Source of the DNA: Azolla caroliniana
Lineage: Eukaryota; Plantae; Polypodiophyta
Direction of reading: 5' to 3'
Length of the DNA stretch: 64,000 nucleotides
NCBI GenBank assembly: GCA_043228905.1
Contig: JBHGNT010000005.1
Coordinates: 13,082,001-13,146,000, forward strand
Part shown: positions 26,086 to 44,899 of the stretch, in pieces
Layout: every line of letters starts with the position of its first letter
How positions within the stretch are numbered: position 1 is the stretch's first letter
Notes under the pieces: generated by a model
Told to the model about the DNA's origin: nothing
Seen by the model: only the letters and a program-made list of their open reading frames with translations
Databases searched by the model: none
Made by a program: the position numbers and the translations under genes

Positions 26086-27851
26086 TGTCGTGTTGTTACG
26101 CTCTCGCGTGTGAAATGAGGCGGGACCGTGGGGGCCTTGAACCAAGGAGGGTGAGAAAGAAGAGGGAGAGCGATTCACAGAAACACAAGGAGAGAGATGG
26201 GAAAGGAAGATTCAATTACAATGTCAACAACAATTACAACTAGTAAACCGGCAACAGACCCAAAACGGAGGTACCATGCACACACATGGACGACACAAAG
26301 AACGTGTGGTGGAGCCTCTGCTGGAAGCACACGGGCTTACACGCAACAGAGGCAACCGACACATAAACGTAGTGGAGAGCAACGATTGAGGAGGAGAGAG
26401 CTTGGTCCCCAGTTCGATAGCACTTTGTCCTCGCCAAAACACGATCCCTATCTTCTTCTTCTCCCCTCCCTTTTGTAGGTCGCTGAGGAGGCCGTTACAT
26501 CAAAACACATCAACTTTATTCTTTGTCCTTTTGGACAGAGATACACATTGATTCCCTAGACAATTAATACCCTTCCTAGTACATATGTACATCAGCCGAT
26601 GTATTCCTAGCTATGTACAATTCATAAACACACACGCACGCAAAAAGGATTGGGTCTCGCCTCCTCCCCTTTATTCCTCCTACGGGCAGTTTTCTACACG
26701 ACATCCACCCCCAGCAAACCGCACGTCCACCGGTGCATGCCAAGTAGGAACAACCTTGGTGGAAACCGGCCCTAGATCACTGGTGATTTTCCAAACTCTA
26801 GCCTTCCCCGATTCAGGCATCGCCGCTGCCATCGTTCACTGGGTCCGGTTCGTCCTCTTGCCGCTTCTTGAACATCTTGACCCTCTTGCTGGCCACCGGT
26901 ACCGCTATCCGCGTCCCATCGAGCTCCACGAGATTTTATGTGGCATTGTCTTTCGCGCTTGTTACCATGTAGGGTCTCCCCGATCCGCCACGATTTTCCC
27001 TACGCATCCGTAACGGCACACTACCTCTTCGATCAGGAACCGGCATACCGCCGCAATCATCTTCTTTGTCAGTGCGCGACCTTCCACTTGGTTCGTTAAA
27101 TCTTCCCGTGCAAGCACCAGATACCGCATCTGCCCTACTCCCCTCGGCATCGTCACTAAGTCCACCATCCATTTGAAGTGGATGGTCGGCGGGTAGGTTG
27201 GGTGCAGCTCGTCTCGATGCCGGAGCGCGGAGTGCATTTGACAGTTTTCACACGTCGTCACGAACTGGTACACATCCCGGTACAGCCCCGGCCACCAATA
27301 CTCCTCTTTCAATTTCTTGAACAAGGCCCATGTCCCGCGGTTTCCGGCCCAAGGACTCTCATGGTACGCCGTTAACAACTTGTCTTGCTCGTCCTTTCTC
27401 GCCACTACGCGGACTGGAACGCCGCCTCGCTTCTTTGGGAGCCTCCATATGTTGCCGTTCCGTAGGAAGAACCAGTAAGCTTTCTTTCGGATCTAGTTAG
27501 AACACGTTCGCGTTCACAAGTGGAAGGATCGCGCATAAATGGAAGGATAAGGGAAATTTTGGTTGATTTTAGGGCTTTTTCAATGATTTTACAAAACACA
27601 TTGATACCAGTATCATACATGTTCAAACATACTATGAAAAAGGTTAAAAATCCACTATTTTCGTGATTTAGAAGTAACTAAAAAAAGACGAATTTCAAAA
27701 AGATACATTCTCAATTTATATCACAAACTTTACAACCAATGTTATTTTATAAGAAATGATTTTTTAGAAATCATAAGAATTCAAAACACATGCTTTTATA
27801 TTACTCGATTTGTTACACTTAATAGCCAAATATACATTTATGATCACTCCT

Positions 27852-30632
27852 TTACGGAGAATCACTACTATAACTAATATACAATGACGATTCCTCTTCC
27901 TCATCCTCGGATGTACCAATCAGTGCATTATCTTCGTCATAAACCAAATGGTTTGACTCTAGATTATATGTAGCAGATCTTGTTTGCCTTTGACTCGAGC
28001 CACCTTGTAGACCTAGTAATTTTTCTTTTATTATATCTATTGTTGACTTCCTTAATCGTCCGACTTTTGTAAGTGTGAAGTCGTACACGATGATATCCAC
28101 ATCAGAGATATCAAGGGTCGAGGTGTTACGAATGTTTCGCTTCCTCTTCCTACCTCCCCTTCTTGTTGGGCATTCAATCATCTCTAATGTATACTTACCT
28201 GTAAAAGCATTTGCACTTCTAGTGTTGTACCAATGAACATTTATAGACTTGATTGTGTTTTCTATTTCATGCATTAGCACTTCTAGAATTTTACCAACCC
28301 AAAATTGGTGGCCATGTGAGTTCTCATCAGCCGGCGTTGCAATCAACATCCCTGCGGTGAGCTCTTGCAAATTGCCTTGCCATCTAGCTTCGACTGCTTT
28401 GGTCATCCTTGGTCCCACATAAATGTCTCTTTGTTGTGGATGGACTAAGCTATCATTAATCGCATTTGCTAGTTGCTCCGGAGTTCTATTTACGCGATCA
28501 TGTTGCAGTGACCATGTGAATGGCGTTTCCAAATTCCAATTATCACCAGATACACAATTGTCTATAATTCCTTTCTGATCACTATAAAATACATCCCACC
28601 ATGACATGTCTTGTTGTCCGGCATATTTCTTGGCGGCCTCAATATGCTTTCTTTTTTCTTCTAAGGCTTGGAGCCATGACCGTTTTTGTTCTGATACCAA
28701 GTCGCTCTGCAACTGTCCTTTCTTCTCAATTGGCATTTGCTTAGCTCCATGGACAATTGTACTCGGCATACAAAGTAATAACTGGCAACCATCTTCAGGT
28801 TCCCATGTTGTAGAAGATGAATATTGTTTAGCATACAAAAGTGTAGAACCACTTATTCTATTTTTCTTTATCATAAAAATGTGATTGAAACTTATATTGT
28901 TTAACTGAGCAAGCACTTTAACATTCCCACCACCCCCATCTGATATATATCTCTTAAAGTCATATACCTCCTTCAAGTGTAACACTTTTGGGTGTGGTGT
29001 ATATGCATCACAAATGACATCAAATAGTTTAGGTAAAGTGAAAGCATCATGCCGAGACAACTGCCTGGAGAATCTGCTAAACATCTTATCTATATGGTCA
29101 TGTGTGTGGCCAACCAAAAGAAAATTGACTTTCACTTTCCTAAACAATTCTTGGTTGACCAACATACTTAGATAGCCAAATACAGTTGAATTTTTGTTCT
29201 CTCTAGCAGTATTGTCCAATTGAATGTATAGAACAGGGGGGAAAGGTTGGCCCCAAGACATCAAAACTCGGTGAATGACTGTAACTGTTAGGTTAGGGTC
29301 ATTGTGAACATTGGGGTATGTAATGAAGACGTGAGGTCCAACAGACCTATTATAAGCCAAGCATCCCACCAAGTGCATTTGAACAAGGCACTCATCATTG
29401 ACATCTTTGGGGAGCCTCTGCATATGAGACAAGCACGTCTTCTTCTGGTCCATGCCATCTATCATTAAGCACATGTATTGTTCGGGCCTCTTCAAACACT
29501 TCTCTCTATGATGCATCGCCTTCTTTCATTCTAAGGATTGTGCCTCACGATGCTCTTGTAGTAACTTCTTACTCATATCCTTTTCCATTGATGTCTTTGC
29601 ACCTTTAGCCAAACTTTTAAGATTTGCACAAATGGAGCAATACCCCATACGTACTTTACGAGGAATGATAACATTTGAAAACCGAGCTCTCCATAATCTT
29701 GTGAATTGGCTATAGGTGATAGACTTATTACGTGAGCCCAGCATATCAGATCGATAGACATCATAAACTTCCCGACGTGTATAATTATCAGAAAGGTGCA
29801 TCCTACCTGTAGTGGGCATTACTTCACAATTTAACTGAAAGTAAGTTTTCATCCAACCAATAGCATGTCTTCCAATTGCACCTTTCATACTTGGAACCTC
29901 TTTACAATTGAGCATCTGATCCCCGCTAAGTAGACGTTGTTGTACTCTATGTAGCCGCATGTTACTAACACATAACGCAATTTTGAATGCAACTCTACAT
30001 ATCTGTTGCGCATGGAAAATATAATACTCGAATGATACTTTGATCCCTGTACATTTGTCAGATACTAGTTGCATATGTGACCCGAGGTAAGTGTCTTGCT
30101 CATCACCGGTCATTGAAAAATAGTATCGCCTTAATTCTCGCAACTTTGATTTTCCAATCATAGACATACAACCACGAGCACAACATATTTTTTTGACATC
30201 AAATCCAATTTGTTTATCTGATGTCACCAAGCTAAATCTAGCCAGACGAATTCTTCGTGGGATTCTTCTAATATGCATAGGTCTCCCAGATTTCTCTTCC
30301 TGCATAGAGGTTGGTGTAACCTTGTTACAATCTAATTCTTTGTTGTGACCATCGCCAATGTTATTCAATGTTTCCTTGGCACTACCTTCATTCTCCGTAT
30401 CTTTATTAATATCGTATTCTTCAATAGAGAACTCTTCACATGTGTCATTATTTACATTCCCTATAGATGAGCTTAGACAATATTCTTCGATAGAATATGG
30501 TGAGTCTATCGACAGACAATATTCTTCAATGGAATATGGTGACTTTGTCGACAAACAATACTCTTCAGTAGAAAACGATGAGTCTGATAACAAACAATAT
30601 TCTTCAATCGAGAACGGTGAATCTTCACTCAT
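27852..30632 (-). pseudogene. Sola-like (DUF7869-type) DDE/D transposase, ~926 aa, with one in-frame stop
   Basis: ORFs 29526-30632 and 27852-29516 are in one frame, separated by a single TGA (QSLE*KKAMHHREK). Motifs IDGMDQKKT, LYIQLDNTARENKN, FLLVGHTHDHIDKMFS; Cys clusters CCARGC, ICRVAF, YCSIC. Confidence 0.8.
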
Positions 30633-31459
30633 GGCTCAAGGTCTAGATAGGGCTCTGTAAGTTATGTGCTTAGGGTAAGGAAAAAAACTAATAAGCTCCT
30701 CTCTAAACATATACTCCTCTCTAAACATAAACTTCTCTCTAAACAAAAGCCAAATCAATAGAATGTCTATATTATGTAATATTATATTAATACAATACAT
30801 AAAAAATTTATTTTTAATATGGTAATTGTATTTAAAATATCAATTATTATTTAAACTACATCTATATGAAGTTAAATCAAGTATAATATAAATCTAATCA
30901 TTACCAAGCCAAAAATATGTTGGATTAATGTTAAAATCATTGGCTAATTAATGGCACCCATATTTGATATAGAACCTCTCACTCATTGGTTCTTTAATGC
31001 TCACCATTTTAAATATTAGACTTATCAATGATTGGTTAAGTCATGCCCACATCTTTAATACACAACATTTGAGAGTCATAAAAATTGTTGCTTTTAGTAA
31101 TCAATCATTGGTACATTCATGAACCTCTATCATTGTCTCCTTCATGACCTTTGAAGTCATTGCAGGTTGTTATCACTATAAAAGATTGATCAATATGTTA
31201 GTTTGACTTTGTAATAATTAATGCAATCATAAGTTACTCTAGTTAATGTCACTGTGGTTACCAACTAACTATCCTCAAACTTACCAACCTTGGTTAAGGT
31301 GACTATGGTTACTTTAACCAATGTGGTCAATCCCTATAAATAAGAAGACCTCGTCATATTTCACTCACAAGAGCACACAAGAGCGTACAGAGCACACAAA
31401 GCACACAGAGCACAAAGCACAAAAGCGCGATCTCCACCTCCACTGCCACACGATCAACC
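30633..31459. promoter_or_regulatory. Divergent promoter region between the transposase and MTase genes
   Basis: AT-rich; TATA box CCTATAAATA at ~31332-31341, ~120 nt upstream of ATG 31460; three ctctctaaaca repeats at ~30697-30745. Confidence 0.55.
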
Positions 31460-34400
31460 ATGTCTTCAAAGAGAATCGAGTGCGAGGACTCCAGGTAGGC
31501 CTCTAACACTGTGGACATTTTTGTAAATATGTTTTGTCGCTCAAGAACTCGATACGCCGTATCGAGTTCCTGTATACAATACAAACTTTATATAGGAACT
31601 CGATATGGTGTATCGAATTCATTTTATTTTTTTTGCTTTTTAAACAGGAACTCGATACACCGTATCGAGTTCCCAGTTCCCGTTTAAAGTATAGGTTTTA
31701 AACGGGAACTCGATAAACCTAAACTTTAAACGGGAACTCGATACGCCGTATCGAGTTCCTGTTTAAAAAGCAATGAAATCATAGGAACTCGATACGGCGT
31801 ATCGAGTTCCTGTTTAAAACTTGGACTTTAAACGGGAAATCGATACGCCGAATCGAGTTCCCGTTTAAAGTCTAGGTTTTAAACAAGAACTCGATACGGT
31901 GTATCGAGTTCGTTTTAAAAACCTAAACTTTAAACTGGAACTCGATACGCCGTATCGAGTTCCTATATAAAAGAAGGCCCTAAAAGAGAAAAATTGTGTT
32001 TTTTGGGGCAACAATTAATTATTGTGTGGAAAAGATATCCAATTGTCTGTCAAAATCAGTCTTTTTTATGTTGACTTGCCTTACTTTTAAAAAAAATATG
32101 CCCTAATTATAGGTGTTTTATGACCTACTATTTGCTTAAAAGAGTAGAAAATAACTCACAAATTACCTTTATGATAGCAAATTCTCCTCAATATAGGTCT
32201 GGAATCTATATAAGTCATACCTCCTCTTTAAAAGAATATATAACCCTGTTTACTTATTATGATATATATTTTCTAGTTTGAATAGCCCTGCCTAGAATGG
32301 ATTTTTGAATATAGGACTACCATGTACTCTGAATGCATGATTGATATTTTCACTTCAACACTAATCACCTGCTAGTGAGAACTGTTCTTCATCTTCTTAT
32401 TTATATTTTAATATACAACCTTAATCTACGTGACCACCTAACTTAGGTTTTTGCATGTACTTTCTTAAATAGGTCGTTTGAGAACCTGTCGGACCGACCC
32501 GTGAAGAAAATAAAGCTTCGCATACAGGGTTCTCCAATCGAAGCCCAGACCAAGGTAGCTCCTGAGACCATGAAGAGAGGAAAAAAGCTTCTCTTCAACA
32601 AGGAGACAAAATCTCAGCCACACATTGACTTTAGCCAAAAGAAACTTGTCGCCGCTACTGGAGGTGAAGACCTTCCTGACCGTGATCTAACGAACAAGGA
32701 ATGGTGTAGGCAATATGTCGACTCAAAGAAAAAAGTCGTATTGTATACAACAAAGAAGAAGGGGGAGGGGCATCTTGGAAAGGAAACCCCATTTATGTAT
32801 GGCCGTATTCTACGATTTCACTACGAAGATGCAGATTCGGCCAACATACTGGTAATGATAGAGTGCTCCAAGGGGGTACGTAAAGTGTTCCTTTCAGAAG
32901 ATCTTTTAGTAAAGGAATCTTGTGGGCCAGAAGCGTTCAAAAAAGATCTTGAAAAGCTCACAAAACCTTATTGTTACCTTGAGGCCTTATATACAAAGGC
33001 CATGTAACTCTAAGAGATGAAGTGCCCTCCCCATTGAAGGCCACAAAAAGGGTATCCAAAGTCCAGTCAAGACCACCAAAGAAGAAGACATCCAAAATGT
33101 CGGACACCGATTCAACAAGTGAAAACGAAGAGGAGGACAATAAGGGGATGCTAGGAGCTGAGCTGGCATCGGGTGTTTTGTCATCCGAGGAGAATAAGAT
33201 AAGGAGAGAGTTCATGCAGCGTAAACTGGTCAGGAAAGGGAAAGTGTTTAATTTGCCTATAACACACATCCATCGGCCCCCTATTGATGAAAAAACAGGT
33301 CGACGACCACTTGAGATTAGAGAGCCACACCGCATGCATGTTCAAAATCTCAAGAAAAAAATGAAAATTAATCCTCATGCCACTGTGGTGCCTTTTATTG
33401 TTATGGTAGATCCTGAGAATGTGAAACCATTGAAGATTTTGATATCAGAAAGCATGATCAATATAATTACTTTGTCATTGGTGGATCGCATTCAGCGGAG
33501 GCACGTCGGCAACTTGTGAGAGAACATCCAACGACTTTCATCTTCAAGTATGCCGAGTGCAAAATTTATGTTGGGCTCACAACCGAAGAGGCTAAGCTGT
33601 TGGCATGGGACCATAATAATGATAATAACTATAGGCAGAAAATGTCATCCATTGAGCGTATACGGTTCTTCCACCATGAGTATTTGGACGTGAAACAAAA
33701 GTTTGGTGTGAAGTTACATCCAGGCCTACGACATCAATGTCTGCATGAAGTCGGCATTGTTGTAGATGATAATGTTAAGTCTGATGGTCTTCGAAAATAC
33801 GAGTCTTGGTTTCAATTGGCATTTAGAGATGGAAAAGTATGGGACCTACAAGATCAAATCTTCTCAATGTGGGAGAATAAGGAGTTAAAGGGTCAACGAC
33901 AAAAGAAATGTAAGGTTGACCCTCAACTAGAGTTAAAATCACAAGCCGCCAAGAAAATTGACTTGACAATTGAAGAAGCCGCAGACGACATGAAGTTGTC
34001 TCTGTGGAGAGCGAAAGATTTAAGCCTTGAAGAAATGGTCACTGAGTTCAATAAGTAAGTCTTTCAAATACTGAAATTGTAGTCTATATGGTGTAATTCA
34101 AAGTTCTAATCTTGATTTCTAATTTTACAGTCATAAGGTGTACATGAAGATCCAAGAAGTTATGATGAAACAACTTGGATGTATAACTTGGGAACAAGTG
34201 ACCGAGGATTATCCTTTAACATCTTCATATAAGGTGTTATCAGAGTATTTTATTGCATTCAAGGATTGGGTTAGTATTGATGGTTTTTCATTACCCTTTC
34301 ATTATATGTAGAGCTTGTATAATAATACCTGATGTCCTATTGCTTCTATTAGAAACCGTGTCGAGGCAAGAAACAAGGAGAAGTTAAGGATATACATGAT

Positions 34401-35644
34401 TTCCCTACATCCTTCCTTGCACATCTCGAGCGAGCCAGAAAAGAAAAGGATCGTTGCTTAGTCAAGGCGTATGAAATGGAGGAAGATGGCTCCTTTAAAA
34501 AATTTAGCCACAAAAAAGATATTACGAGAGATCTTTACTACAATGTGGTTTGCGGTGATGTCGTCGACTTGATCCAAAAGGTGCCAAAGAAGGAATATAT
34601 GCTAATGATTGCAGATATTCCTTACGGATTTCGAATAGCTGGGTCATCATACGATGATGAACCGTTTAGGTTTAAACAATTGGAGAAGATGGTCAAGGAT
34701 TTCGTTGAGCTAACGACTGCATCCTTGTGGCGAATAGTTGTCTTTCATAGTATGGACCAAGGATACTCGGTAGCTCAAGCTTTGAGATATCGTTGCCATG
34801 GCATCGAGAACCTTGCATGGTAAGGATTATTTATAGGTGTCTTTCACTATATTGCATTTTTTAAGGTTGTTCAATCTATTCTTAACTCGATGTATTATTT
34901 TTTATAGGATCAAGACCAATGTAAATAGAGGGCCAACTTTTCGGTTCGTTAATGCCATTGAATACATCACGGTTGGCTACTTCGATGAAATTAAGAAACA
35001 AAGAATCAAGGAGCATTCTAATGAAGTGGGAGGTTCAAATCTGTTGGTATATCCAGCAGTGACACGGAAATTGCGACATGTCACCACGACAGAACGGGGA
35101 CTTGTCAACCCATATCAAAAACGTCAACGACTTATGATGCGCTTGATCGAGATGTTTTCTATCGAAGGAGACTGGATATTAGATCTCTTTTCTGGCACAG
35201 GTATTCCTCGAACTAGGGTAACGATCTTGAGATAACCAATCCCGAATCTTTTTTGTTTGACAACTAAATATTCTTGTTACTTACATCACAGGAACGACGT
35301 CTGCATGTGCATTGAAGCTCTTTAGAAATACAGTTGCATTGGAGAAGGACGAGGACCAGGTTATATTTATTAATATGCGGATTAAGGCTTTGTGGGAGTG
35401 CCCAAACTAGGATGAGGAGGTCGGTGCAAAGAACCTCGCTAATACAGAAAGGTTTCAACCTGCTTCGCGAGAGCCTATTCCTCGGTTAGCCGGCGAACCG
35501 GGGGAGCTAATAGAGCTTGATGATGAGCTTATAGAAGATATTTTGTTGGCTCGGCTAACAGGGGAAGCCAATGCACGTATAGCCGAAGAGAGTTCTACAC
35601 AAGATGATGAAGAAAATGATGTTGATGAATTGATTGCTATGTAA
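31460..35644 (+). pseudogene. Six-exon gene: ParB/Srx-like domain fused to a beta-class N6-adenine/N4-cytosine DNA methyltransferase (~956 aa reconstructed)
   Basis: Exons 31460-31494, 32473-34054, 34131-34269, 34353-34819, 34908-35200 and 35292-35644, all GT-AG and phase-compatible. ParB-like YFVIGGSHSAEARRQL; MTase CGDVVDLI, IADIPY, WIKTN, NPYQK, WILDLFSGTGTTSACALKLFRNTVALEKD. Two 1-nt frameshifts (~32983, ~33418) and a premature TAG at 35408. Confidence 0.85.
31545..31962. repeat. Array of 25-bp palindromes with 51-bp period (8 full copies plus a half)
   Basis: GAACTCGATACG[C/G]CGTATCGAGTTC at 31545, 31596, 31648, 31734, 31785, 31836, 31887 and 31938; half-site at 31706. Confidence 0.95.
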
Positions 35645-36249
35645 TAGACTCTATGAAGAATGTGAAACTGACGATTTGTTAGGATTTCACATTATTAATA
35701 CAAATTTTGGGTTTTACCTAGTGGATTCTATTCTTTATAATCTTCTATATGTTTCAATTTTATTTTTATATACTTGGTTAGTAGATTTATGACATTGGTT
35801 TCACCGCGTGCATAGCTGACTACCAAATTTATGGAGAAACATGAATTAGTTTAAATTGAGGCTGATTTTGGTCCAAGCTAACCTTAACAGAACATGGCCC
35901 TACAATTGTTGCCATGACTGTCCATGTTGTTATTATGGATCTTTGTCTTCTATTGTTAAAACTATTATGTTTCTATTCCATTGCTGCTTAGATTGTGTAG
36001 TGTGTTGATAATGGTTCCAGTTGCGTTATCGTTCGAAGTTTGATCATGTGTGAATCACCTAAGCAATAGAGTAGATCAATTTTAAATACAGATATGAAAG
36101 CCTAATAGGTTTGTTATTTCCACGACATTATCCTAATGTTCACTGCCTTACATTGTCCACAATTATATACATATGGTTTGATCCCATATGAACAAACTGA
36201 GGAATAGATTAGATCAACCCTAAATACAAGTATTGAATACTTTAATAAG

Positions 36250-39200
36250 TTAGTTATTCCACGTTGCTTCTGGTGTCATTTTCTTCAGGAACCTACTGAT
36301 CTTGAGCCACTCCCCGTCGTACTCGCCTTCGTGAAATTCGTTATGCGCTAGAGGGCTCCTGTCCCTCGTTATGTATGCCATCTCGAAGAAGTCTACGCCG
36401 ACTTCCTTGTCCTCCGAAACCATGTCGTCCTCTTCGTTGAACCGTGCTCTCGAAAGCATGTTGGCCATGGCGTTGTCCTTCCCGGAGTTGTGCCATATCT
36501 CCGGATTTAGGGACTTGATGTACGCGATCCACCTGAGCATTACCAGGTCTGGAGTCGCGCATCCGGAAATCATACCGAGAATCGGTAGGCAGTCCGTCTC
36601 GATTATTACCTCCATCCCTATAAGATAATCTTTGTCGGCCTTAACCATCGAAACGAATCCCCATAGTTTGCGCTTAACTTGGGTGTATCCTCGTTGTTGC
36701 TCATTGAGAACCTTCACCCCGAACCGGACCTGGAACCGTGTGCCACTCTCGTCCTCTTGATTGATCAGCCATCTGATTCCGGTCGGGCTTGTGTCAACGG
36801 TTACGTAGATGTGGACCTCCTTGCCGTAGACCGCTTTCCTGAGAGCCGGTGTTGCGGTAAACGCCTCCTTCAGTCTCTGGACCGACTCCGTATGCTCCTT
36901 GCCCCATTCAAATTTGTGCCCCTTCTTCAGCAACCCGTAAAGTGTTTTCGCGACGTGTGCGTAGTGCGGAATCCAGATGTGGTAGAAAGCGCACGCACCT
37001 AGGAACCTTCAGTCTCCGGACCGACTCCGTATGCTCCTTGCCCCATTCAAATTTGCACCCCTTCTTCAGCAACCCGTAAAGTGTTTCCGCAACATGTGCG
37101 TAGTGTGGAATCCAGATGTGGTAGAACGCGCACGCACCTAGGAACCTCCGCACCTCCGTAACCGACTTGCACTCTTCCTTTATTACAGAGATGGCTTCTA
37201 TCTTTGCCGGAGATGATTTCCAACCGTAGGGCCAGCACAGGTGACCGACCACTAGGATCTCCTATTGGCCGAACACTGATTTATCGCCGAAGAAGGTGAG
37301 CCACACGTCCTCCAACCTTTGCAGCACCTTCTTGCAGTCATTAATGTGGTCCGCGACGAACCTTCGGCATCCGTCCGGCCCAACCGCCTCGTCCTTATCC
37401 TCCACCGGACATCCTTTGATCGGGATGTCGTCCAGGAATGACATGGTGATGTCCGGGATGCAATCCCTCAGCACCTTGTTCATTGCATTCACCATGTGCG
37501 CCACCAAGTTCGTCCCTCCTTGCGGCAAGGTAGACATCTGCACTAAGCCGAGAGGGGTCCGCATCGTCGTGATATCCTTGCTCTCCACGGCTAGTTAGAA
37601 CTAATCGTACCCCGAGTACAGATCACCGACCGAATAGATTGACCTTCCGGAGAAGGCTTTCGCGAACTCGTCTATCCTTGGTCCGATACTTGCATTACAA
37701 ATGGTCACCATGTTGACCGGTTGCAGGTCCTGAATGAAGCGCAGCGTGTCATTCTTCTTCGGCATGGTAAACCACTGATTCGAATATGGGGCACTCGACA
37801 GTTCGAAGATGCCCATCTCCACTTTATGCTTCAGTAGCTCCATCAACTTCGGGAGGTGAGCTCTGGGTACTGGAATCGGCTTGAGATTCTACGACACATA
37901 CGGCACTGTGAATATCACCATCAGCTCCACGATCGTCGAGTCTATGCAGCCGATCTCCTCCGGTGAGAATGTGAAGGCTTTCCCATGCCTTCCGAGCATC
38001 CTCCGAGACCAGTCCTCCTCCGCTGGCAGTAGAAACCCAACCCCACCGACCTTGAGCTCCCGTAGCGGTATGCCGGTGAATCGGTGCCCTATGCCGACCG
38101 GTTGCCGTAAACTTGGGTCCGACACGACCCCCTTTATTCGCTCTTCGCTGCCCTCCGACAAGGGTGCCACGACTGGCCTCACCTTCCGGTCCACAGTCTT
38201 GTACCTGGTATCCACTTAGGTCGTCCGACCGGACCGGACCCTTTCCCCGAAGTCAGCGATGACTTCGTACATCTCCACTGAACTAACTGGCACTGCCCGG
38301 TCTTCACTAAGGCCTCCTTCGACAACCTCGCGCAATTCCCCCAAGGTGTCATCAAAGGAGACCGCCTCCACGGCGCTACCAATCTCTTCGCCAGGGCCGA
38401 GGACTCCATACGCCCTAAGTCTTCCTTCCGCCCGCTTCTTTTCCTGGCCACTGATGTCGGCTATAGTACAACCTCCGTTATCGGAGAACCAAAATTTCCT
38501 ATCTATGGGTACATGTGTGGGGTTCTTTTGGGGTGTCCGGACTATCGCGGCCCCACAACTTGATAGCCCTCTCTAAAAATCCCCTCGGCCCTCGCCGCCG
38601 AGGGTCTCACAGTTACGCTCATGGTTCGGCCTCACCGTTAAAAATTGAACAGAGTGTTGTCTGTCCTAGCTCTTCATGTGCGCGTACGCCGATCCGTTGT
38701 TAAGCACCTTCGTTTCCATCCGTGCCGCTGTAATGTATGGCTCGCCGAGTATCATCGGGTGTGAGGAGGTCTCTTGCACAAAGAAGTGTTGATCTATTTC
38801 AACGTCATTGATCTTTATGCGCACATTCAGGCACGCACCATGCAGCTCCTCCATAGCGCGTGTCGCCGTGCGTATCTTCCACCCGTGCTTGGTGTTGATC
38901 GTCCACTTCCTCTTTTTGTAGAAGTCCATGGACATTAGGTTGATCTATGAGCCGTGGTCTATCAATGGCACCACCGGCTCCTGCACATCCCCAACCTGGA
39001 CAGGGGTCTCCATAATGGCTCTGGCCCAATGTGGCTTCGTGTAGTAGCTGTCCGCCAACTCATCCTCTAGGGCCGTGTCTTCTAGGTGGTTCGTTTGAAC
39101 CTCCACAGGCTTCTCCGGCTCTGGCTCCGTCGAGAGCCGCTTTTGCTTCACCAAGTCCACAATGGAGTCATGGAACTCCTTCTTGGCGATTCCAAGCACC

Positions 39201-43641: not shown

Positions 43642-44899
43642 ATCCGGCCAACACCTCGAGCACGTCCGCGTGGATGCTCGGCGTCACCACTCGAGGGAAT
43701 CCGAACAATCGTCTGTCCTCCGGGATGTCCCTCATGATCATTTCGGCCCGATAGGCCTCCAAATAGCTCGTGGCATTCTTCCCACCGAATCGGCCTATGG
43801 TGTCGACAATCGATTCTACGGCCCTATCAAGGGCACCTGTTCCCTCACGAGCACTAAATTAGCCAGTCGACGACTACTGCCATAGCTTCACCAAGCTCGG
43901 ATCCCCTCATCTTCAACTGCTTTGCCGCCTTCTTTCACGTCGGGTTCACCAAATGATGACGCGTTGTTACGCTCTCGCATGTGAAATGAGGCGGGACCGC
44001 GGGGGCCCTGAACCAAGGAGCGTGAGAAAGAAGAGGGAGAGCGATTCACAGAAACACGGGGAGAGAGACGGGAAAGGAAGATTCAATTACAATGTCAACA
44101 ACGATTACAACCGGTAAACCAACAACAAACCCAAAACGGAGGTACCACGCACACACACGGACGACACAAAGAACGCGCGATGGAGCATCTGCTGGAAGCA
44201 CACGGGCTTACATGCACCAGAGGCAACCAACACAGAAACATAGTGGAGAGCAACAATTGAGGAGGAGAGAACTCGGTTCCCAGTCCGACAACACTTCGTC
44301 CTCGCCAAAACGTGATCCCTATCTTCTTCTTCTCCCCTCCCTTTTATAGGTCGCCGAGGAGGCCACTACATCAAAACACATCAACTTTATTCTTTGTCCT
44401 TTCGGACAGAGATACACATCAATTCCCTAGTACATATGTACATCAACCGATCTATTCCTAGCTATGTACAATTCATAAACACACACACACGTGAAAAGGA
44501 TTGGGTCTCGCCTCCTCCCCTTTATTCCTCCTAGGGCCAGTTTTCTCCACGACAACGCATAATGCTAGAGCCCCATGTTGTTGTTGTGTTTGTTGCTTTT
44601 CTAAGGAGATTTGTTGGAGATCCCCCAACAACCACTGATTTTCTTGTTCCAATGTGAGAAACTTCTCTTTCAAGCATTGCAACTCTGAGAAAATGGATTG
44701 ATATTGTTGAGCGCTAATAGTTGCCAGTATGAAGATAGAAGGAAGGACAATCGGTTCAAACTATCATGAATAGTATGAAGAAAGAGAGGGAATTAGTACT
44801 AAAAGATGAGGATTAGTACTAAAAGGGGTGTAGCACTCTCGGGAGAAGGAGAGAGAGAGAGAGAGAGAGAGAGATTATATTTTTGGTCTCATAGGTCAT

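Follow-up and report, generated by a model that had tools for sequence, protein, structure and literature searches.

A 64,000-nucleotide stretch of the genome of the fern Azolla caroliniana (contig JBHGNT010000005.1 of GCA_043228905.1, positions 13,082,001 to 13,146,000; hereafter the window) contains a copy of a Sola1-like cut-and-paste transposon that is present in high copy number; this copy is decayed and truncated on the right. The family to which this copy belongs couples a transposase gene, head-to-head, with a gene that joins a ParB-fold part to a beta-class amino-methyltransferase and holds a phased array of palindromes in its first intron. The methyltransferase is under strong purifying selection, the two genes remain linked across many copies, and the array is conserved. 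The design is already known in algae, where self-modification of the element is a hypothesis, and the family described here is a land-plant variant of it. Our best reading of the sequences is that the element may mark its own DNA, probably with N6-methyladenine (6mA).

In the window, a lower-GC insert splits a Gypsy pol frame into two halves. An earlier note, made from the sequence alone, had claimed that an insert in this frame carries a transposase on the minus strand, a ParB/amino-methyltransferase gene on the plus strand and a palindrome array, and all of these parts were found where it had placed them. Of the bounds that it gave (27500..36250), the left one proved to be a true terminus, whereas the right one, at about 36259, is a deletion break and not an end of the element. 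For comparison, we used 80 related loci (contigs). The left terminal inverted repeat (TIR; 27501..27536, plus strand) starts with AACAC and gave an inverted match of 97% to the right ends of eight related loci. The 3' part of the element (35645..36259, plus strand) lost its right TIR by deletion: it follows the related locus L041 up to 36259, where the alignment stops, and lacks the final 433 bp over which L041 continues past the homology break to its own right TIR, so the window copy is truncated on the right. No second TIR was present in the 64-kb window in a search allowing up to nine mismatches. All four two-ended loci (L020, L046, L049 and L063) had TIRs of 33-37 bp (about 36) of the form AACAC…GTGTT; three of them are complete at 7.6-7.8 kb, and the fourth is internally deleted. 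A 4-bp target duplication was found at L049, where the interrupted frame runs on across the site, while the flanks of the other three two-ended loci were unrelated, as expected of contigs collapsed from many copies. A distant group of loci had a sharp TGTT end in three of four cases among the loci listed. Two other interpretations of the ends were rejected: TAGTTA at both junctions is not a target duplication, as the right-hand TAGTTA belongs to the element sequence, and a Helitron-like 3' hairpin at the left end was discarded after the TIRs turned up.

Both genes were highly repeated, with depth in 30/30 bins in each of four DNA runs; in run X1, 20,804 contigs aligned to the stretch, a figure that is not a copy number and includes 1.4 kb of Gypsy flank. 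Linkage was counted from loci bearing the ParB/methyltransferase gene. Where 1.9 kb or more was available upstream of the ParB exon (11 loci), the transposase stood head-to-head with that gene in 10, and the lone exception (L006, from the distant group) had a LINE-like (long interspersed element) insertion in the transposase's place. Among eight loci with 1.0-1.9 kb upstream, four showed the transposase start and four were too short to tell. Methyltransferase exons were present in all loci with at least 1.3 kb downstream (49/49). Pairwise identities of the transposase and the methyltransferase were correlated across 11 elements (rho 0.68, Mantel p 0.0002). A profile search returned 737 matches at E<=0.001, and 20 named methyltransferase genes came from Chara (9), Riccia (4), Adiantum (4), Ginkgo (2) and Ceratopteris (1). 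Methyltransferase and transposase carried consecutive locus tags in Riccia (R1sor_010795/010796) and Adiantum (L7F22_049839/049838), a pairing read from tag order.

The broken state of both genes in the window copy would fit a one-off capture or a chance neighbour without function for the element. We regard that explanation as scarcely credible, and for the family it was refuted by the 10/11 linkage, the pairs in two named genomes, the correlated divergence and the purifying selection. The proposal of the earlier note that the ParB/amino-methyltransferase gene and the array are stable parts of a transposon family was borne out by the same linkage, divergence and paired tags; it had set out beforehand that a single-copy gene or a chance neighbour would speak against it, and many copies with recurrent linkage were found instead. 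Odd transposase or TIR positions in L014, L034 and L048 were considered as other layouts and rejected, being nested insertions; family members were thus inserted in other members in 3/80 loci (L014 at 3960, L034 at 3280 and L048 at 4040). In a tree of the ParB part (17 rows, midpoint root, two long branches), the distant contigs joined Ginkgo (96/96), and because the backbone of the tree was unresolved, we make no claim on the direction of transfer.

The transposase gene (27852..30632, minus strand, about 926 codons) encodes a Sola1-like DUF7869 protein (Pfam PF25273, E 4e-52), and no paper on DUF7869 was found in a literature search. It was 86.5% identical across 929 aa to the intact relative P0002, with a single in-frame premature stop at 29526-29528; the closest named relative was from the fern Ceratopteris (56% identity). 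The model of another intact relative, P0001, had an RNase H core like that of integrase, mariner and TnsB (best Z 7.7, root-mean-square deviation (rmsd) 3.3, 134 aligned), and three acidic motifs were kept in transposase alignment A2. Around the second catalytic Asp, the sequence reads D-N-T-A-R-E-N-K-N-S, compared with D-n-c-a-g-q-N-k-n-s in the Sola1 hidden Markov model (HMM) consensus given in the supplement of PMC5751038, an agreement judged by eye and not by HMM score. The element was filed as Sola1-like on the RNase H fold, the signature of the Asp region, the termini and the duplication length seen at L049, and not by phylogeny; the termini agree with those of Sola1-1_Ec32 (AACCG-CGGTT), as would the duplication length at that one locus. 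The C-terminal beta domain of the transposase (28100-28400) gave weak BAH matches (DNMT1 BAH1, Z 5.6; MTA1, Z 5.4), and from these model comparisons it is possible that the domain is a chromatin reader. The start of the gene (30477-30620) consists of 39-bp units in tandem, each encoding 13 residues of acidic character; the number of units differs among relatives, and three 18-bp direct repeats lie immediately upstream of it (30691-30745).

The plus-strand ParB/methyltransferase gene (31460-35644) has six exons and five GT-AG introns. The region between the two genes (30633..31459) is a putative divergent promoter with a TATA-like box about 125 bp ahead of the plus-strand ATG; the TATA, the short exon 1 and its donor were found again in related families. 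Exon 1 (31460..31494) has 11-12 codons, splices in frame to exon 2, and has a micro-exon counterpart in L030, L026, L037, L046, L049, L052, L055 and L045. Exon 2 (32473..34054) would encode, by fold matches of relatives, a small N-terminal beta domain, a ParB/Srx-fold domain and a helical, helix-turn-helix-like region; in the window copy, it is damaged by two frameshifts, at about 32952-32995 and 33415, and has lost 19 codons near 34012. Exon 3 (34131..34269) is a linker whose junction is identical in the annotated Ceratopteris protein P0097. By motif reading, exon 4 (34353..34819) holds the catalytic half of the methyltransferase with the motif DIPY, and exon 5 (34908..35200) carries the domain up to the S-adenosylmethionine (SAM)-binding motif DLFSGTG and alone matched Pfam N6_N4_Mtase (E 1.2e-6). 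Exon 6 (35292..35644) contains the methyltransferase end and an acidic tail, with a premature stop at 35408-35410. A word-index search of exon 4 against longer proteins gave no match, which is weak evidence, and the closest named relative of the ParB exon part was from Ceratopteris (64% identity). Two RNA runs, picked by guess, yielded four and zero contigs, none of them spliced, and were uninformative on expression either way.

The palindrome array (31549..31958) consists of eight 17-bp palindromes with the core TCGATRC-N3-GYATCGA at a 51-bp period (spacings of 51, 52, 86, 51, 51, 51 and 51), and the other 63 kb of the window had one further site, with two mismatches. The earlier note was right about the presence of a phased array, and its position is here corrected from between the genes to intron 1 of the methyltransferase gene (31495-32472). 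The array starts 90 bp past the start codon, and we place it in the intron because the TATA-like box, the 11-12-codon exon 1 and the donor precede it in related families. At least two core sites were present in 19 of the 25 fern-type loci having at least 600 bp upstream, and the sites were concentrated there, with 180 in 35 kb upstream versus 21 in 265 kb elsewhere. The variable arm positions 6/12 stayed complementary in 163 of the 180 sites. Spacings grouped at 30-33, 39-43, 49-54, 63 and 71-73 bp, corresponding to 3, 4, 5, 6 and 7 helical turns; the units of 3, 4 and 5 turns recurred, with hardly anything in between. The best period was 10.55 bp over 49 family-level spacing values, contributed by 19 of 33 families; 0/5000 jittered sets matched it, a p value that is optimistic because the families share ancestry and the long spacings are sums. 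Half-sites 10 bp apart, with sites in phase along the helix, are what a cooperative dimeric binder would be expected to select. A second conserved motif, CTGTACGGAC, was observed 12-25 bp past the exon 1 donor and ahead of the array in diverged families (L026 at 3730, L030 at 3604, L037 at 519, L046 at 6666, L049 at 4034, L052 at 6137, L055 at 3594 and L060 at 3551), and it is degenerate in the window copy, at about 31508.

The candidate for such a binder is the protein's own ParB-fold part. The large-exon model of a close relative (predicted local distance difference test (pLDDT) 70) gave 13 Foldseek matches at E<=0.001 with Noc/ParB on top (E 3e-6), and by VIA, it resembled PadC (Z 10.4, rmsd 3.0, 100 aligned) and the archaeal pNOB8 ParB (Z 8.5 over 213 residues). 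The predicted order of a ParB/Srx fold followed by a helical DNA-binding region is that of the ParB/Noc CTPase clamps. Profile A3 matched no ParB chain among Protein Data Bank sequences, and Pfam returned only DUF6551 on the ParB part (E 0.035), so the ParB identity is a matter of fold. A homodimer model scored 0.59 against 0.09 for the best control, with runs sharing at least 35% of contacts and pLDDT of at least 72, at a mark reached by 21/30 solved homodimers and 0/23 monomers; this pass may reflect similarity to ParB dimers of solved structure. In exon 2, the matches of the N-terminal beta domain were middling (SANTA, Z 5.8; PH-like, Z 4-4.5). Residues 225-542 of P0077 (window 33150-34054) had look-alikes in the atlas, at 0.96, among fungal DUF3723 clusters, and DUF3723 is listed as a Starship component in the available text of PMC12256816. 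As a lead only, giant fungal transposons may carry a ParB-fold protein in the form of DUF3723; the ParB-fold part of P0077 had no Pfam match to DUF3723.

In the methyltransferase part, catalytic motif IV (DIPY) precedes the SAM-binding motif I, DLFSG(T/S)G, which is the beta-class order. Among 52 motifs read, 43 were DIPY, six were DIPH (the distant group) and none was SPPY. A Ginkgo relative matched PF01555 (E 7.6e-18). The nearest solved enzymes were N6-adenine methyltransferases of the beta class (RsrI, MboIIA, CcrM and DpnA; E 2e-6 to 3e-3), with N4-cytosine enzymes ranking behind them (E 0.35-0.9), and on this sequence comparison the predicted mark would more likely be 6mA than N4-methylcytosine (4mC). 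The spliced domain was complete in 36/80 loci and stop-free in 36/36. The dN/dS had a median of 0.039 (range 0.014-0.256) in the 15 of 406 methyltransferase pairs that were usable (dS between 0.1 and 1.5), and it reports selection between families because many contigs are collapsed from many copies. The distant group (L001-L011, L017 and L078) has the same intron positions, with DIPH for DIPY and without the 17-bp core; judging from these sequences, catalytic motif and site may have changed together.

Two alternatives concern what the enzyme does. It could write 4mC, for instance at the CG within the TCGA of each half-site, and so block host CG methylation and deamination. The Pfam family does not tell N4 from N6 enzymes, and the array has 17 TCGA and a CpG observed/expected ratio of 2.26, compared with 0.6-0.77 in the two genes. 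However, the palindrome motif itself contains CG, which accounts for the CpG excess, SPPY was absent from 52/52 motifs, and N6 enzymes scored far above N4 enzymes, so we see a slim chance for 4mC. To a protein that is mainly a DNA-binding or synapsis factor, or that methylates single-stranded DNA or RNA and leaves the element's duplex DNA unmarked, we give a slimmer chance still. The catalytic motif, DIPY/DIPH rather than the canonical DPPY, and the DpnA-type enzymes among the closest solved relatives would suit such a role, and Iyer et al., in the available text, reported that such enzymes have switched to RNA more than once and that inactive copies occur on transposons in DIRS1 (PMC4738411). 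In contrast, the motifs for SAM binding and catalysis hardly vary, at a dN/dS of 0.04, and a ParB-fold DNA-binding part fused to the enzyme suggests DNA as the substrate.

We propose that the element marks itself. A ParB-fold dimer would bind the palindromes in intron 1 of its own gene, beside the divergent promoter, and would thereby place the methyltransferase on its own element and on sister copies. Adenines of the element would be methylated, and the mark would help to keep the promoter common to both genes usable in a host that silences transposons by 5-methylcytosine (5mC). We infer the dimer binding, the catalytic activity, the adenine target and the effect in favor of expression, and we give the whole chain, from array binding through 6mA on the element to expression kept despite 5mC silencing, slightly better than an even chance. 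The array may alternatively serve self-restraint or timing, with occupancy of intron 1, or methylation close to the promoter and the ends, dampening transposase expression or tying transposition to replication. An array in the gene's own first intron would allow a bound multimer to block transcription, and bacterial IS elements, with their control by Dam, offer a precedent for this type of restraint. The bdelloid N4CMT and its mark have been tied to transposon silencing, according to the available text of PMC8885841. Very high copy representation, together with persistence over a long time under purifying selection, is consistent with a benefit to spread, although self-restraint is also selectable. 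We consider self-restraint unlikely, and the benefit is more likely to be continued expression under 5mC silencing.

Several points weigh against the self-marking proposal, in addition to the non-canonical catalytic motif and the optimistic p value of the phasing. The evidence does not separate activation from repression. The GxxR nucleotide-box arginine is essential in ParB CTPases, and the corresponding box here is GGSHS or GGNHS in 24/24 A1 sequences, without that arginine, which makes a CTP sliding clamp doubtful. The 17-bp core was missing in all five Ginkgo-like loci with at least 600 bp upstream, and none of the 13 loci of the Ginkgo-like group showed a transposase, these contigs being short or interrupted. 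Only 2 of the 20 named methyltransferase genes could be matched to a transposase tag, in a transposase list that is incomplete.

The earlier note knew of no description of the combination, but precedents have been published: the gene pair for Sola1-1_Ec32, and ParB genes next to inverted-repeat arrays for the Plavaka elements of Bostrychia. As far as the available text of the sources cited here goes, Sola1-1_Ec32 of the brown alga Ectocarpus carries a ParB-like plus N4/N6 methyltransferase gene on the strand opposite to its transposase, self-binding and self-modification were proposed, and similar proteins were cited in green and red algae (PMC12477816). The present family shares with it a Sola1-type transposase with an opposite-strand ParB/methyltransferase fusion, AAC…GTT termini and, going by locus L049, perhaps a 4-bp target duplication; the proteins were likened by description and not by sequence homology. 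Sola1-1_Ec32 is 21.5 kb long with a 282-bp imperfect TIR and two intact copies, and the available text of its paper does not mention palindromes. In contrast, the present family resides in land plants, in a host with 5mC silencing, and has complete relatives of 7.6-7.8 kb, a TIR of 33-37 bp and a phased intronic array. The Bostrychia Plavaka (EnSpm) elements with PAG2 and PAG3 likewise have a transposon-borne ParB-like domain beside tandem inverted-repeat arrays, a PF01555 methylase and a self-modification hypothesis (bioRxiv 10.1101/2025.02.11.637652). They differ in their EnSpm transposase, in having ParB-2OG oxygenase and methylase-SET on separate genes, in their red algal hosts and in their size of 17-19 kb.

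A proven plant case of array-targeted anti-silencing is VANDAL/VANC of Arabidopsis (PMC5735166), and, according to the Bostrychia preprint, no transposon other than VANDAL is known to bind itself and modify its own DNA (bioRxiv 10.1101/2025.02.11.637652). There too, a plant DNA transposon directs an accessory protein at tandem motifs in its own non-coding DNA. However, that transposon belongs to the Mutator superfamily, and VANC removes 5mC and has targets that vary by family, whereas the enzyme here is predicted to add a mark, and the core is kept across families. The order of ParB followed by a beta-class amino-methyltransferase is that of phage ParB-N6/N4 fusions in ParB-terminase loci (PMC4738411), from which the fern gene differs in its five introns and its setting in a eukaryotic transposon. 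Atlas look-alikes at 0.87-0.88 were phage ParB_N+N6_N4_Mtase clusters, as a lead only; 301 phage records matched the methyltransferase part, at 23-29% among the matches listed, and no phage record was among the matches listed for the ParB part. MpDN4MT1 of Marchantia and N4CMT of bdelloids are likewise bacterial-type beta-class amino-methyltransferases in eukaryotes, but they have SPPY, are host genes without a ParB domain and are proven 4mC writers. The suggestion of the earlier note that the element could be a vehicle by which amino-methyltransferases enter plants is not supported for these enzymes by motif and architecture, with DIPY/DIPH and a ParB fusion found here. Charophyte and dinoflagellate retrotransposon DNA methyltransferases (PMC5890265) are also transposon-borne, but they are C5 enzymes in retrotransposon open reading frames.

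Literature searches found no land-plant case of the gene pair, although Iyer et al. 2011, Bao et al. 2009, Repbase entries (Sola1-1_PPa) and bioRxiv preprint supplements could hold one; within the same limit, they found no description of the compact form, the conserved intronic operator or the helical phasing. In the surroundings of the insert, an 85% identical pair at 26500-26703 and 44371-44554 may be the long terminal repeats of the Gypsy element, and a 139-bp tandem duplication lies within the Gypsy pol region at 36867-37144.

Enzymatic 6mA in plant DNA is disputed. The value of this family is mainly that it makes the self-methylation hypothesis directly testable. The element is compact, its enzyme is available as intact sequences under strong selection, and the 17-bp candidate site is defined and phased. 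The model fern Ceratopteris has relatives of the element, and methylation could be called from long reads over many copies. Tentatively, and with more doubt than confidence, we suggest that Sola1 may have carried a sequence-addressed 6mA system through streptophytes (Chara, liverworts, ferns and gymnosperms), with cooperative loading on a phased array and evasion of 5mC, which would make it a localized enzymatic source of 6mA and a contributor to the size of large plant genomes. If self-marking is true, the family would counter silencing with a mark of bacterial type in hosts whose own silencing uses 5mC, and it could possibly be leveraged as a programmable locus-marking tool.

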